Source: a virus
Lineage: Duplodnaviria > Caudoviricetes
Strand: one strand, 5' to 3'
IMG/VR virus record: IMGVR_UViG_3300031998_000009
Location: 32,001-96,000 of that record
Length of the DNA: 64,000 bases
The notes beneath the pieces were generated by a model that searched no databases, was not told the DNA's origin, and was given only the letters and a program-made list of their open reading frames with translations. The translations under genes were made by a program, and so were the position numbers. Positions 2,512-53,360 of the stretch are shown one piece after another; the stretch's first letter is position 1, and every line of letters begins with the position of its first letter.

Positions 2512-2973
2512 TTAAAACGTCAATAGAGTATAATCTGGAGAATCCAATGTGGAAGGTACATAGGAAGGATTATCCGAATAAAGTTTATCATAAGAACCTT
2601 TTAGATATTCGTCTATCTCGATATCTATCCCTAAATACTCATAATTCCAATCGAATTTAGTTGAATCCCACACAGTACAATCGTTTATTTTATACTTTTT
2701 AGATGGACTTGCTAAACATTCCATAAGAAGTTTCTTCTCATGAGAATTAAGTTTCCAGAGTTCTTTCCCGTCTGTTTGATGATATGTCCATCTAGGAGCA
2801 AAAAACATAAGACGTATAACAGAGTCTGCATTTCTGTAATCTGTGTTATTATAAAATTTAAAGTATGGATCACCTATTCGGTTAGAGTCTGGATTAACAG
2901 CAACAGACACATTATTCTTAAAATCTCTGTGAACGGTTGCCATTTCAAATAATTCATTTTTAAGTGGTATCAT
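2512..2973 (-). CDS. Leader-bearing protein (LFE|MA), DUF4160-like, paralog of 9684..10052
   Basis: Shared EMA...GxP[YH]F...HxxGK...LNxxxKKxL...PxxKxK...TxW...PxYxxL pattern. Confidence 0.7.
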   Translation of the reverse strand: MIPLKNELFEMATVHRDFKNNVSVAVNPDSNRIGDPYFKFYNNTDYRNADSVIRLMFFAPRWTYHQTDGKELWKLNSHEKKLLMECLASPSKKYKINDCTVWDSTKFDWNYEYLGIDIEIDEYLKGSYDKLYSDNPSYVPSTLDSPDYTLLTF

Positions 2974-2985
2974 AATAATTTCCTT

Positions 2986-3375
2986 TCAAACATAAGGTAA
3001 ATAGTCAACAAACTTTTTATCTATAAGGTCATACCTATATCTAACAGTGTCACAAGTCTCCTCTATATAATAATAACAGTTCAACACATTGTTACCGTTG
3101 AAGTTCAAATAATAACTTCCAAGGTGCTCCAAAAACTGAATACACATCTGACCAGAAGTTACTGTACTAAAATCTTTACCGTAAAAGAAACTCAATAACA
3201 ATGTTAGATCTACATCCTTAAAAGATATGGTAAATTTATCTCCATTCTGGAAGTAAAACTCGACATCGGATGTGTTTACAGTTTCCTCCAAGGTATAGTT
3301 CCCGAATGTGTCTGTATCCCAGTCTGTTTCAATCTTAACTAGATTAGTATTCTGTAATTTTACAAGAATATCCAT
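2986..3375 (-). CDS. Hypothetical protein
   Basis: ORF with AGGAGG RBS inside operon. Confidence 0.75.
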   Translation of the reverse strand: MDILVKLQNTNLVKIETDWDTDTFGNYTLEETVNTSDVEFYFQNGDKFTISFKDVDLTLLLSFFYGKDFSTVTSGQMCIQFLEHLGSYYLNFNGNNVLNCYYYIEETCDTVRYRYDLIDKKFVDYLPYV

Positions 3376-3389
3376 TTAGAAGTCCTCCT

Positions 3390-3797
3390 TTATTTGATCT
3401 TCCACACTTTTCCCACACATTTATCTGTGCAGTCCCAAATGTCGTGAACCTTACCGTCAATAACAACCGTCAGATGATGTGAACCCATATGACAAATGTA
3501 AACACCGGTATTAAACTCTTCACAGAACTGTTTTCCTGTATATTTAGTTTTATCCGGATGTCTTGGAGATTTAAGTTCTGTAAACATCTTGAGTTTATGT
3601 TTTAGGAGTTTCGGATCGTTGATAGAGTACCCTGTCTGAAGTGAAAGTACTACCATAGATTCCAAGGTATTTTTATAGGTATCACCCAGTGCATTAGCAA
3701 GTGCTCTAATAGTGCAATCACCTGTGTGTTTACCTTTTGGATTAAGATTTTCGTAAACGAACCATTTAGTATTAGGATCAACAATTCGCTTTGCCAT
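3390..3797 (-). CDS. Conserved phage protein, possible papain-like fold
   Basis: GDCTIRAL...HLTVV...DIWD motifs (candidate Cys-His-Asp set). Confidence 0.55.
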   Translation of the reverse strand: MAKRIVDPNTKWFVYENLNPKGKHTGDCTIRALANALGDTYKNTLESMVVLSLQTGYSINDPKLLKHKLKMFTELKSPRHPDKTKYTGKQFCEEFNTGVYICHMGSHHLTVVIDGKVHDIWDCTDKCVGKVWKIK

Positions 3798-3836
3798 AAT
3801 CTTAACCTCCTCAATAACATTTACTTTACTATATAT

Positions 3837-50419: not shown

Positions 50420-50439
50420 GTTTAATCTATACAAAATAA

Positions 50440-52641
50440 TTACTTGTTTTGATTCTTATAGAACAGCTTTCTGTAATAAATAATATCTTTGGGCATATGC
50501 TCTCTTTCTTCTTTACTGTATTCACTGTATACTTTCTTCATAAAATCGTAAAACAAATTAGATTCAGGTGTTAGTAGTTGTCCGGTTTTATCGATATAAC
50601 CTTTTCTTAATACAATCATTGCTATTTTTCTCATATGCTTCCAATGATTGTAGTAATCGAGTTTAAGTTTTGTCATATAACCAACACTATCCTCAATAAC
50701 AAAACCTTCAATAACTCTACCACCAAAAGTATAATCAGGCTGTAAAACCTCATTATACCAATCATAGAAATCAGACCAATTATTGATCACAGCTGCCTTT
50801 GTTTTAACTACTAGACCTAATTCTTTACCTACCTCTACCACTTCTTCGTAATCGTGTTGTTTGAATTCAAGACTATTATCAATGATAGAAAGTAGGAATA
50901 GCTCATTTTCTGGATATTCAATGATGTGTGGATCGTGTACTTGGTCTACACATTCAAATACAAGAGTAACATTGTTTTCCTTACAATACTCTTTTACCCA
51001 CTGTACCTTATCCTCTGACAATTTTTGGTAAAGCATTATCTTTAACCAGTCTGCATAGGAACCTACTGGACAGGACTTTGTGGTAATGAACAGATCATCT
51101 GTCTCTTCGTTATATGAAACAAGACCCAGATATCCATTTTCCTTCACATAGCAGGTAACTGGAAATTTAAGTTTGTATTGTAACATATCAAATTGAGTTT
51201 CCGGTCTTTCATTGATATTGAAAAACTTACTGTATCCACGACACATAACTTTCATTGTAGCTGTGTTAATATACAGTCCTCTTGCTACGATTGTTTGTTC
51301 ATTCCAAATCTTATCATAAAAAGCATCTTTTGTAAAGTTGAACGAAGAAATGTTACCATACTGTTTTTCCTGAATGTGTCTGTTCTTACGAAGTTTCATA
51401 ACAGCATCTGCCATATCAGAATTGGTAATTGTTTTCTTTTCCTCGACCTCTTCAATAGGCTTGAATACCGTATTCTGAATAGTTACTTCATGGAACCCTT
51501 CTTTATCCAATTCGACAATACGAAGACATCCACCGTGTTCTATCTTACCCTCAAGATTAAATGTTCTTTCCTCGATGCACATATCAGAGTATCTAATATT
51601 TCTGTGGCCGTGAATTTGGTACATATTAGATTCTGTATTTTCTTTCCAATATTTAGCAACGTCTTCATAATCTTTGTAATCACCTACACCACGAATCATT
51701 TGTTCAGTGGATATAAATGTCAGATTATCAGGCATTGTGGAAAGACCACCATGAGTTACTAAAACATCTTTTCCATCATATGTATACCAAGCACATTGAC
51801 CACATTTTCTGTAAAGTTGTCTAATGTCTTTCAAATCAATATCGGAATTTTGAAGTTGTTTTTTCGTTACAAATTCAAATTCTTTAGAATCAGCAATACC
51901 TTCATTAGCATATATCCACAACCATCTTTCATGGTTACCCTCAAGAAGTAGTACATTAGGTCGTTTCACAGCTTCAATAAAAAACTTTACAACTTCTGCA
52001 TTTTCTAGTCCTCTATCAATAATGTCACCTACAAAGATATACATATAGTTGTCGTTAAAACCATTTTTGAAGTATTCCATTAGGGCAGTATAACAACCGT
52101 GAATATCTCCAATGTGTACGATCTTCTCATATTTATTCAAGTCAAACTTCTTCATCCAAATAGTATCAAGTTCTTCCGGTTTAATAGCTTTAATACCTGC
52201 TGGAATTTTTTGAGTAGCGAATCTAGAATAAATATTCTCAAGTGCTGATTCAGGTACCCACTTAAACATAGGACGAAGTTTATTCCTTCTTTTGCATTCT
52301 TCCAGTGGAACATCTGTCATATCAATACAATAGATTCTGTAACGATATGTTTCACACATATTCTTATAACGATTCATTTCTATTGTTTTACTATTTGTAG
52401 CATCAATGACAGTAAACTCACCACGTTTCATTCTAGTTTCGAGAAGTTTGAATAGCATAGACCATACATCTTTTTCATTTTTCTGACTGATTCCATATGT
52501 TCCATTTACACTAAGTTGTGGTGTAGAACACAGAACACGAATATCATCAGCACAAAGAGTATACGGTTTAAGTCCATGTTCCTCAATAAATGTTGATTTA
52601 CCACATCCAGGTGCTCCACGAAGTAAAAGTAAAACTCTCAT
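50440..52641 (-). CDS. RNA repair enzyme: polynucleotide kinase + metallophosphoesterase + Rnl1-type RNA ligase
   Basis: GAPGCGKS and IDATN; GDIHG, GDIIDRG, GNHE, HGG, HGH; RGYSKFFN, KENG, EGFV, KLK. Confidence 0.92.
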   Translation of the reverse strand: MRVLLLLRGAPGCGKSTFIEEHGLKPYTLCADDIRVLCSTPQLSVNGTYGISQKNEKDVWSMLFKLLETRMKRGEFTVIDATNSKTIEMNRYKNMCETYRYRIYCIDMTDVPLEECKRRNKLRPMFKWVPESALENIYSRFATQKIPAGIKAIKPEELDTIWMKKFDLNKYEKIVHIGDIHGCYTALMEYFKNGFNDNYMYIFVGDIIDRGLENAEVVKFFIEAVKRPNVLLLEGNHERWLWIYANEGIADSKEFEFVTKKQLQNSDIDLKDIRQLYRKCGQCAWYTYDGKDVLVTHGGLSTMPDNLTFISTEQMIRGVGDYKDYEDVAKYWKENTESNMYQIHGHRNIRYSDMCIEERTFNLEGKIEHGGCLRIVELDKEGFHEVTIQNTVFKPIEEVEEKKTITNSDMADAVMKLRKNRHIQEKQYGNISSFNFTKDAFYDKIWNEQTIVARGLYINTATMKVMCRGYSKFFNINERPETQFDMLQYKLKFPVTCYVKENGYLGLVSYNEETDDLFITTKSCPVGSYADWLKIMLYQKLSEDKVQWVKEYCKENNVTLVFECVDQVHDPHIIEYPENELFLLSIIDNSLEFKQHDYEEVVEVGKELGLVVKTKAAVINNWSDFYDWYNEVLQPDYTFGGRVIEGFVIEDSVGYMTKLKLDYYNHWKHMRKIAMIVLRKGYIDKTGQLLTPESNLFYDFMKKVYSEYSKEEREHMPKDIIYYRKLFYKNQNK

Positions 52642-52796
52642 TTATTTTCCTCCTCTATTTTAATTCCATTTGATTTAGCAAAATCATGAACCAGCTGTTC
52701 CAAAGATCTACTAGGTCCTCCTTTTTCTCTATCTTCATATATCATATCAGTTATAGTATCGGCATCCAATAAAGAAAGCACTTCCGAATAGTTCAT
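52638..52796 (-). CDS. Small hypothetical protein (52 aa, below ORF-track cutoff)
   Basis: MNYSEVLSLLDAD...IEEENK*, GGAGG RBS, ATGA overlap with next gene. Confidence 0.65.
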   Translation of the reverse strand: MNYSEVLSLLDADTITDMIYEDREKGGPSRSLEQLVHDFAKSNGIKIEEENK

Positions 52797-52811
52797 ATTA
52801 TTCCTCCATTA

Positions 52812-53360
52812 TTATTTGTTAAGAACAGTAATAACTTTTCCATATTTATTCTGTTCGAAATTACTAATTCGAATCTGTGCTTTATTCAGATATTTATTAA
52901 AAGCACTTCGTGCTGCTTTTTCAAAATTTTTAGGTTTCATACCTACAATATGAATACTTTGTAATATATCCGGTAACTTTCGTTTTTCCTCATGCTTATG
53001 GTCAGAAAAACGAATGGAATATTTATAATTTTTAGTGATCTCCTCCTCTGACAAACTATCCGGATGTATAAATACGATGTCTATGTAATTAGACAAACCT
53101 GTTTTTGTTTTCTTCGAAGCACCACGAACCCAGCAAGACTTCACACAATTATATTGTTTGATCGTTTTTACGGCATCATTAAGATACATACGCAAAAAAG
53201 CCCTTGTATCCTGTACGTTTTTATAGTTGTTACCATCTTGTATCTCTTCATCCGGTTGAACCATATCTTCATCTAAATCATTTAATGTCTCCTCATAAGG
53301 AAGCATATCAACATAGAATTCAATATTTTCATCTTCATGTAATAGTTTAATCATTATCAA
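52812..53360 (-). CDS. Cassette gene B copy 2 (leader MIKLLHE; IRFSDH motif)
   Basis: Paralog of 25553..26098. Confidence 0.85.
   Translation of the reverse strand: MIMIKLLHEDENIEFYVDMLPYEETLNDLDEDMVQPDEEIQDGNNYKNVQDTRAFLRMYLNDAVKTIKQYNCVKSCWVRGASKKTKTGLSNYIDIVFIHPDSLSEEEITKNYKYSIRFSDHKHEEKRKLPDILQSIHIVGMKPKNFEKAARSAFNKYLNKAQIRISNFEQNKYGKVITVLNK

Follow-up and report, generated by a model that had tools for sequence, protein, structure and literature searches.

Short N-terminal [LIV]-x-E tags on many proteins of an uncultured T4-type phage: candidate prohead-protease cleavage and head-loading signals

We analysed a 64,000-nucleotide stretch of viral DNA (the window; bases 32001-96000 of the 198,524 bp IMG/VR virus record IMGVR_UViG_3300031998_000009, ~33% G+C), in which an earlier note had listed 16 proteins that start with a short leader, or tag, ending in [LIV]-x-E, where x is any residue. 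We observed that this motif is strongly over-represented at the N-termini of the proteins of the phage and that the genome encodes a prohead protease of the family that in T4 cuts after such a motif. The evidence tips modestly towards the reading that the tags are prohead-protease cleavage and loading signals on a large, fast-changing set of head cargo proteins, an enlarged variant of the T4 internal proteins.

A heuristic gene caller applied to the whole genome predicted 295 genes, 288 of them on the minus strand. The genes for the tail sheath, baseplate hub, head-tail adaptor, major head protein (8.5e-43) and portal (5.7e-40) were identified in a PHROG search. The phage is an uncultured gut or rumen myovirus with a T4-type head. 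Its head protein shares 37-39% identity with its counterparts in Bacillus phage HSE3, Listeria phage LIS04 (Thornevirus) and Streptococcus phage GXN1, and shows ~26% identity to T4-like gp23 over 91% of its length. Since its anaerobic ribonucleotide reductase NrdD has 62-65% identity to NrdD of gut and rumen Clostridia and Bacilli, the host is likely a Firmicute.

To estimate how often the motif would occur by chance, the N-termini of the 295 proteins were shuffled column by column, which preserves the composition at each position, and interior windows of the same proteins were counted in parallel. The first 7 residues contained [LIV]xE in 48 proteins, compared with 24.8 ± 3.8 after shuffling and 27 in interior windows; for the first 12 residues, the corresponding values were 86, 48.9 ± 5.8 and 51. 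Given that the shuffle keeps positional composition, the excess is not a composition effect. The signal is also narrow: in the first 9 residues, [LI]xE was seen 52 times across the genome against 22.9 expected (~2.3x), [LI]xD was not enriched (23 seen, 23.1 expected), [AGS]xE was depleted (5 seen, 18.7 expected), and Glu after other residue classes was at or under expectation. The Glu is concentrated at residues 5, 6 and 7, with 15, 12 and 18 proteins, respectively, where 5.3 would be expected at each position. For Leu, Ile and Glu within the tag, codon choice follows the genome-wide pattern, indicating that the peptide, and not an RNA or DNA element, is under selection. The motif search that the earlier note had called for thus passes its controls.

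These counts bear directly on the possibility that the motif has no function and arises from AT-rich codon bias at N-termini, unrecognised paralogy or wrongly called gene starts. N-termini are indeed generally rich in Lys, Ile and Leu, [LI]xK and [LI]xN show a mild enrichment as well, and some of the listed proteins are paralogues. Nevertheless, shuffles with position-specific composition return half of the observed count, AT-rich control genomes are flat, as is [LI]xD, and the motif is preferentially retained in orthologues (both described below). The enrichment also persists when one member per BLAST family is kept ([LI]xE, 43.1 vs 20.1 expected) and when only the 157 genes with unambiguous starts are considered (28 vs 12.2 expected). 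We regard this explanation as largely refuted and its remaining probability as very small.

In the window, 35 of the 117 genes carry the motif. The concentration of twelve listed genes at 22-36.5 kb was borne out, as 15 of the 29 genes in the 22-36.6 kb stretch bear it (binomial p 1.5e-5). All 16 minus-strand starts are present as listed, each with an ATG behind a Shine-Dalgarno-like site. The genes are named here by the window position of their start. One leader had been misread: the first part of that of the 31912 protein ends in T-N-E, which does not fit the motif, and the true match is L-T-E at residue 24. The description of the tagged proteins as mostly unrelated is largely right, with the qualification that 22450/23017 and 26098/53354 are paralogue pairs and that 27196 has paralogues outside the window. 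The statement that the metabolic enzymes are without the leader was checked on NrdD, a Pnkp-like RNA-repair enzyme, a ThyX-like protein and a DNA methylase, none of which has it.

The earlier note had proposed looking for a gp21-type protease in the full genome, and one is present within the T4-type head module. A Peptidase_S77 domain (PF03420) was detected at genome 169838-170350 with 51 bits (cut-off 27). It forms the N-terminus of a 569-residue open reading frame (ORF; genome 168632-170341), of which the remainder is a coiled coil, directly upstream of the capsid gene, with the portal gene also nearby. Protease-scaffold fusions of 556-570 residues occur as well in LIS04, GXN1, HSE3 and three related IMG/VR phages. 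In an alignment with T4 gp21, the catalytic His and Ser are conserved within the motifs H-P and G-V-S-S-R-G, which are invariant in four clade members. Two [LI]xE sites at the N-terminus of the protease line up with two in T4 gp21, and V-x-E↓S (↓, putative cut) is invariant at the junction between protease and coiled coil. The capsid proteins of the clade have [LIM]xE↓[AST] just N-terminal of the conserved core, adjoining the T4 gp23 site L-T-E↓A. The sites in the capsid propeptide and the protease N-terminus thus match or adjoin T4 cut sites, and from this correspondence we infer that they are cleaved.

The motif could also be read by other machinery, as a stability or degradation signal, the site of another enzyme or a docking peptide for a dead S77-like domain, its match to the gp21 rule being coincidental. 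A candidate for such a domain exists: genome 27592-29004 (minus strand), ~3 kb before the start of the window, encodes a 470-residue protein in which a segment weakly similar to the S77 protease (pairwise E 0.001) precedes an RlaP nucleotidyltransferase domain. In this segment the catalytic-Ser motif is replaced, so that it is apparently inactive; the protein could be a protease-derived head-loading module. Comparisons of promoters and ribosome-binding sites, moreover, revealed no link in expression timing between tagged and head genes. On the other side, the signal is strictly a Glu with Leu or Ile two residues before it, which is exactly the T4 gp21 rule, the same motif occupies the processing positions of capsid and protease, and the enrichment goes with phage lineage rather than host genus. 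For these reasons, we consider a reader other than the prohead protease improbable.

The dependence on phage lineage emerged from control genomes, which were run through the same gene caller and scored for [LIV]xE in the first 12 residues against the column shuffle. Four genomes without an S77 protease gave no excess: Staphylococcus phage K (41 vs 41.4), Listeria phage A511 (32 vs 35.5), T5 (24 vs 22.3) and a 200 kb gut Bacilli (Firmicute) genome of 27% G+C (25 vs 28.9). In contrast, more motifs than expected were found in two phages with the protease, T4 (57 vs 43.9) and LIS04 (58 vs 38.0 ± 4.8), the enrichment in LIS04 being weaker than in the related IMG/VR phages. A511 and LIS04 infect one host genus and only LIS04 is enriched; therefore, the pattern follows the lineage of the phage. 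The T4 scan recovered known gp21 substrates (IPII/IPIII, gp67, gp68, gp21, gp22, gp24 and Alt), which indicates that the procedure detects real leaders.

The tags were then compared among three related IMG/VR phage contigs, including two denoted G002 and G003, whose capsid proteins are 65-79% identical. All three show the excess ([LI]xE seen/expected, 42/11.5, 54/23.5 and 54/24.2), with [LI]xD at or below expectation, and their tags share two consensus forms, M-K-L-x-I-x-E and M-[VI]-[KR]-[KR]-L-x-E. In orthologue comparisons, an N-terminal [LIV]xE was retained in 56% of cases, compared with 32-38% for N-terminal [LIV]x[DKN] and 41% for interior [LIV]xE (Fisher p 1e-6, with pairs that are not independent). 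The strongest tags of the genome under study lie on genes without a homologue in the three relatives, each of which has in turn 23-31 tagged genes without a homologue in the others.

Some homologues of tagged proteins lack the tag. The G002 homologue of the 27875 protein begins ~17 residues later, and that of the 32316 protein starts at query residue 14; neither has a tag. The G002 homologue of the 26098/53354 proteins likewise begins after the tag, the alignment with 26098 covering it only from residue 13. A different tag, MVTRLEE↓M, precedes the same body in the G003 orthologue of the 10052 protein. Within the window, residue 26 onward of the 31912 protein aligns with residue 2 onward of the protein encoded at 29459-29851 (38% identity, E 2e-24). 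From these alignments, the tag behaves as a portable, modular element.

The family of the 22450 protein has four paralogues per genome, of which two lie in the window. An alignment of 12 members from four phages revealed an invariant tag Glu followed by a variable linker of 6-8 residues. In an AlphaFold2 model of a family protein (mean predicted local distance difference test score, pLDDT, 76.7), residue 9 begins the first strand, which places the tag outside the fold; a Foldseek search of this model against the PDB returned no match at E 0.001 or better.

Sites of the same type also occur inside proteins. The internal site of the 36520 protein, RKRNIKE↓S at residue 122 (~nt 36155-36157), lies directly before its sole conserved domain. 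Three database homologues share this C-terminal domain only; their N-terminal halves differ, each with its own [LIV]xE start, and in all three the stretch that leads directly into the shared domain is the same basic linker, ending in I-K-E↓S (L-R-E↓S in one). An AlphaFold2 model aimed at the interdomain linker of the 36520 protein had a low mean pLDDT of 47. An N-terminal tag and an internal site of the R-K-R-x-I-K-E↓S type co-occur in the genes at 67903 and 177173 of the phage under study, 5461 and 123774 of G002, and 62513, 67364 and 68729 of G003. Sites at domain joints look like processing sites of modular proteins and call to mind the sites of phiKZ-type head proteins, which are multiple and redundant (PMC9026906). 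The ORF at genome 177173-178579 (minus strand), just upstream of the head genes, encodes a 468-residue candidate multi-module cargo polyprotein, in which three internal sites of the basic + [LI]-[KR]-E type would allow cuts after residues 119, 287 and 373. Across the genome, interior sites that score on the tag profile were mildly enriched (45 vs 30 ± 6), and counts of interior basic + LxE sites were not clearly above controls.

Under the reading that we favour, a tag would consist of a basic or hydrophobic start with Leu or Ile at P3 and Glu at P1, often with Ser or Asp after the cut, and would be recognised by the phage's own gp21-type prohead protease, which in this lineage is fused to a coiled-coil scaffold. 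By analogy with the T4 internal proteins, Alt, gp67 and gp68, the tag would serve to build these proteins into the prohead core. Maturation would remove it by a cut after the Glu, and the trimmed proteins would stay in the head until they enter the next host together with the DNA; the multi-module ones would be cut at their joint sites into separate pieces. The ~30 tagged proteins of the genome, of which the window encodes roughly a dozen, would make up an accessory cargo set of fast turnover. It is from this analogy that we infer cleavage, packaging, delivery and effector roles.

The tags may also be genuine prohead-protease sites on proteins that are not injected, either core or scaffold helpers that are degraded and expelled or proteins that are switched by late proteolysis. 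The evidence linked to the protease fits this alternative equally well. In T4, cleavage of gp22, gp67 and gp68 yields fragments, most of which leave the head (PMC9026906). Many tagged genes, in addition, look early-transcribed. We nonetheless hold it to be unlikely, given that the tagged proteins, unlike assembly factors, are accessory and change quickly from one related phage to the next, and that a protein which loses one short N-terminal tag stays whole, as is the case for the T4 internal proteins and Alt.

Regarding expression, a strong and very uniform host-type (sigma-A-type) promoter with an extended -10, TTGAC(A/T)-N-TGTGTTATACT, has 32 minus-strand copies in the genome, nearly all of them within 8-115 kb and many immediately behind a terminator hairpin. 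It had been stated that most of the listed genes have no such promoter directly upstream, and this holds for 14 of the 16, the exceptions being 10052 and 22450. In promoter-led units, 26098 and 53354 are second genes and 2973 is a third gene. The 35468 gene is preceded by a terminator hairpin (35544-35520) and has no promoter of this type. TATAAAT-like words were considered as a late promoter and rejected because they are too common to count.

Several observations weigh against cargo loading through the tags. The chance background is high: ~23 of the 52 [LI]xE sites are expected at random, chance is expected to account for roughly a third to half of the motif-bearing proteins, and evident false positives include the tail sheath, baseplate hub, QueE and IS607-like genes. 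On the leave-one-out profile, ~8 of the 16 listed proteins are in the top 6% of interior sites, 4 are moderate and 4 are weak, with tags no better than interior sites; three that are weak by profile (10052, 23017 and 31912) have other support, from homologues, an alignment and a paralogue comparison. No overall [LIV]xE excess was found in GXN1 and HSE3 despite their protease, and the N-termini of LIS04, GXN1 and HSE3 scored no better than controls on the tag profile trained on the genome under study. GXN1 does have five small ORFs, possible paralogues, that start with MRL-[IV]-[KR]-L-x-E, four of them around the head genes. Several tagged genes (10052, 22450, 26098 and 53354) lie in units driven by host-type early promoters, a k-mer search for a late promoter in upstream gaps without a host-type promoter gave AT-rich words only, and the tagged genes share no distinct class of ribosome-binding site with late or head genes. 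As the tag has just 5-9 residues, its targeting capacity is assumed. The genome paper of phage SP-15 contains no virion proteomics.

The proposal of the earlier note, virion-packaged effectors with a portable tag, therefore fares unevenly. The protease, the enrichment and the portability speak for it. Against it stand the tag consensus, which has only the L/I-x-E end in common with the T4 capsid targeting sequence, and the function searches, in which Pfam and PHROG left every tagged protein without an annotation. Matches were limited to a sub-threshold TarH and a weak PHROG of unknown function, and the ESM Atlas search gave no usable match.

A bolder form of the favoured reading, which we put forward tentatively and with more doubt than belief, is that the address is the cut site itself. 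The tag would dock in the substrate groove of the scaffold-fused protease domain, and any protein gaining 5-9 residues ending in L/I-x-E would thereby gain loading, trimming and injection. Some tenth of the proteome, with multi-module polyproteins that are cut at identical joints among it, would then form a plug-in arsenal delivered before gene expression. If cargo loading through the tags is real, the T4-style system would no longer be limited to a handful of proteins in T-even phages but comprise dozens, and it would be present, with a minimal tag recognisable from sequence alone, in a distant phage lineage of gut or rumen Firmicutes. Virion-delivered proteins, prime candidates for anti-defence factors, could then be predicted from genomes, and a very short tag would be at hand for packing foreign proteins into the heads of phages of Gram-positive hosts. 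The cultured relatives LIS04, GXN1 and HSE3 are suited to direct study.

Table 1. Tagged proteins and associated features of the window. "Top x%" is the leave-one-out profile score relative to interior sites; ↓ marks the putative cut.
Feature	Position	Strand	Remarks
153-residue ORF, MIPLKNELFE↓M	2512..2973	-	moderate candidate, top 8%
122-residue ORF, tag MFLKE↓M	9684..10052	-	weak by profile; sigma-A-type promoter directly upstream
142-residue ORF, tag MLLTE↓D	22022..22450	-	4-paralogue family, conserved G-I/Y-F-W start; sigma-A-type promoter directly upstream
144-residue paralogue, two stacked sites MRLIVE↓H and FLKE↓N	22583..23017	-	22450 family
280-residue ORF, tag MKLQIRE↓A	23044..23886	-	top 1.2%; no Pfam, PHROG or Atlas match
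181-residue ORF, tag MKLTISE↓S	25553..26098	-	top 1.6%; paralogue of 53354; second gene behind sigma-A-type promoter
183-residue ORF, tag MKLHIQE↓R	26645..27196	-	weak, no better than interior sites; paralogues outside window
224-residue ORF, tag MKLRIKE↓S	27201..27875	-	highest-scoring tag in window; close homologues only
78-residue ORF, tag MVEKLKLRE↓D	27887..28123	-	top 0.4%; no homologue in relatives
85-residue ORF, tag MVKQVNE↓A	28538..28795	-	moderate, top 12%
130-residue leaderless paralogue of 31912 protein	29459..29851	-	natural "tag-minus" comparison
176-residue ORF, 25-residue basic N-terminal extension ending RSLTE↓N	31382..31912	-	body matches leaderless paralogue
88-residue ORF, tag MVNRLNE↓G	32050..32316	-	top 3.7%
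250-residue neighbour of BspA-type protein	32482-33234	-	shares N-terminal segment with capsid-adjacent 108-residue protein
622-residue BspA-type leucine-rich-repeat protein, untagged	33307..35175	-	in promoter-free stretch holding four strong tags
87-residue ORF, tag MVRKLRLSE↓S	35205..35468	-	among strongest tags, top 0.1%; no homologue in 3 related phages
205-residue ORF, tag MVKRLNE↓S	35903..36520	-	second internal site RKRNIKE↓S
84-residue ORF, basic N-terminus, RRIGLTE↓D at residue 19	45576..45830	-	top 8.5%; after hairpin
180-residue ORF, tag MIKLLHE↓D	52812..53354	-	top 5.6%; paralogue of 26098
Host-type promoter copies, TTGAC(A/T)-N-TGTGTTATACT	10112, 22509, 25476, 26589, 29370, 31280, 43320, 45480, 50366, 53855 and others	-	

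Beside the tagged genes, the window holds several other features. A 108-residue protein next to the capsid gene (genome 166426-166752) has an N-terminal segment in common with the BspA-type protein and its neighbour (Table 1), and this segment may be a capsid-anchoring module on surface-display proteins. The Pnkp-like enzyme, a 733-residue fusion of kinase, phosphoesterase and T4 Rnl1-type RNA ligase, is encoded at window 50440-52641 (minus strand). Two further minus-strand genes encode a protein with a sub-threshold radical-SAM match (window 1592-2500; 28.0 bits, cut-off 29.5) and the ThyX-like protein of 420 residues (53918-55180); judged by these similarities, they are nucleotide or base-modification enzymes amid small unknown ORFs. 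The only plus-strand genes of the window, at 57863-59651, encode a serine recombinase (Resolvase) and an OrfB_IS605/TnpB-like protein and form an IS607-like insertion, and a 96-residue resolvase fragment is found at 19183-19473 (minus strand).

The closest known system is that of the T4 internal proteins IPI-III, Alt, gp67 and gp68, with which the phage shares an S77 protease with an L/I-x-E rule and a T4-type capsid and portal (PMC9026906, PMC3012670), as well as short N-terminal propeptides on otherwise unrelated proteins. T4 gp21 cuts after L/I-X-E and removes propeptides of 7 (Alt) to 65 residues (gp23), and the capsid targeting sequence is seen as a device by which T4-like phages load varied proteins (PMC9026906). 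The differences are that the tag here is M-K-L-x-I-x-E or M-V-K-K/R-L-x-E and not the T4 sequence, that it has ~30 carriers instead of ~8, with genes in several scattered clusters, that the protease is fused to the scaffold, and that the system is known from sequence alone. Internal proteins of T-even phages have only the leader in common and block restriction enzymes (PMC12373910, PMC3012670). According to PMC12373910 (citing Repoila 1994), the hyperplastic ip loci of T-even phages encode at least 10 Ips that share the leader alone, of which Ip1-3 inhibit the GmrSD type IV restriction system, and they resemble the present set as variable, strain-specific small proteins united only by an N-terminal leader. 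The set described here is larger, belongs to a distant Firmicute-type lineage and is without known targets, and its tags vary in codon use, without a hint of a conserved DNA cassette.

In phiKZ, 201phi2-1 and SPN3US, many head, inner-body and ejection proteins are likewise cut after Glu by a gp21-like protease (PMC9026906, PMC10052503), at sites that can be multiple or redundant and, when internal, divide proteins (PMC9026906). However, their proteases prefer Ser, Ala or Gly at P3, whereas small-x-E is depleted at the N-termini here (5 vs 18.7), and their propeptides are long, compared with 5-9 residues. The Dar proteins of phage P1 are also head-packaged, injected anti-defence cargo that depends on N-terminal regions (PMC9024508, PMC12810830), but they belong to another head lineage, with another loading hierarchy and no shared short cleavable tag. 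On balance, the tag system is most likely a variant form of the system of T4 internal proteins, in a distant phage lineage with probable Firmicute hosts.

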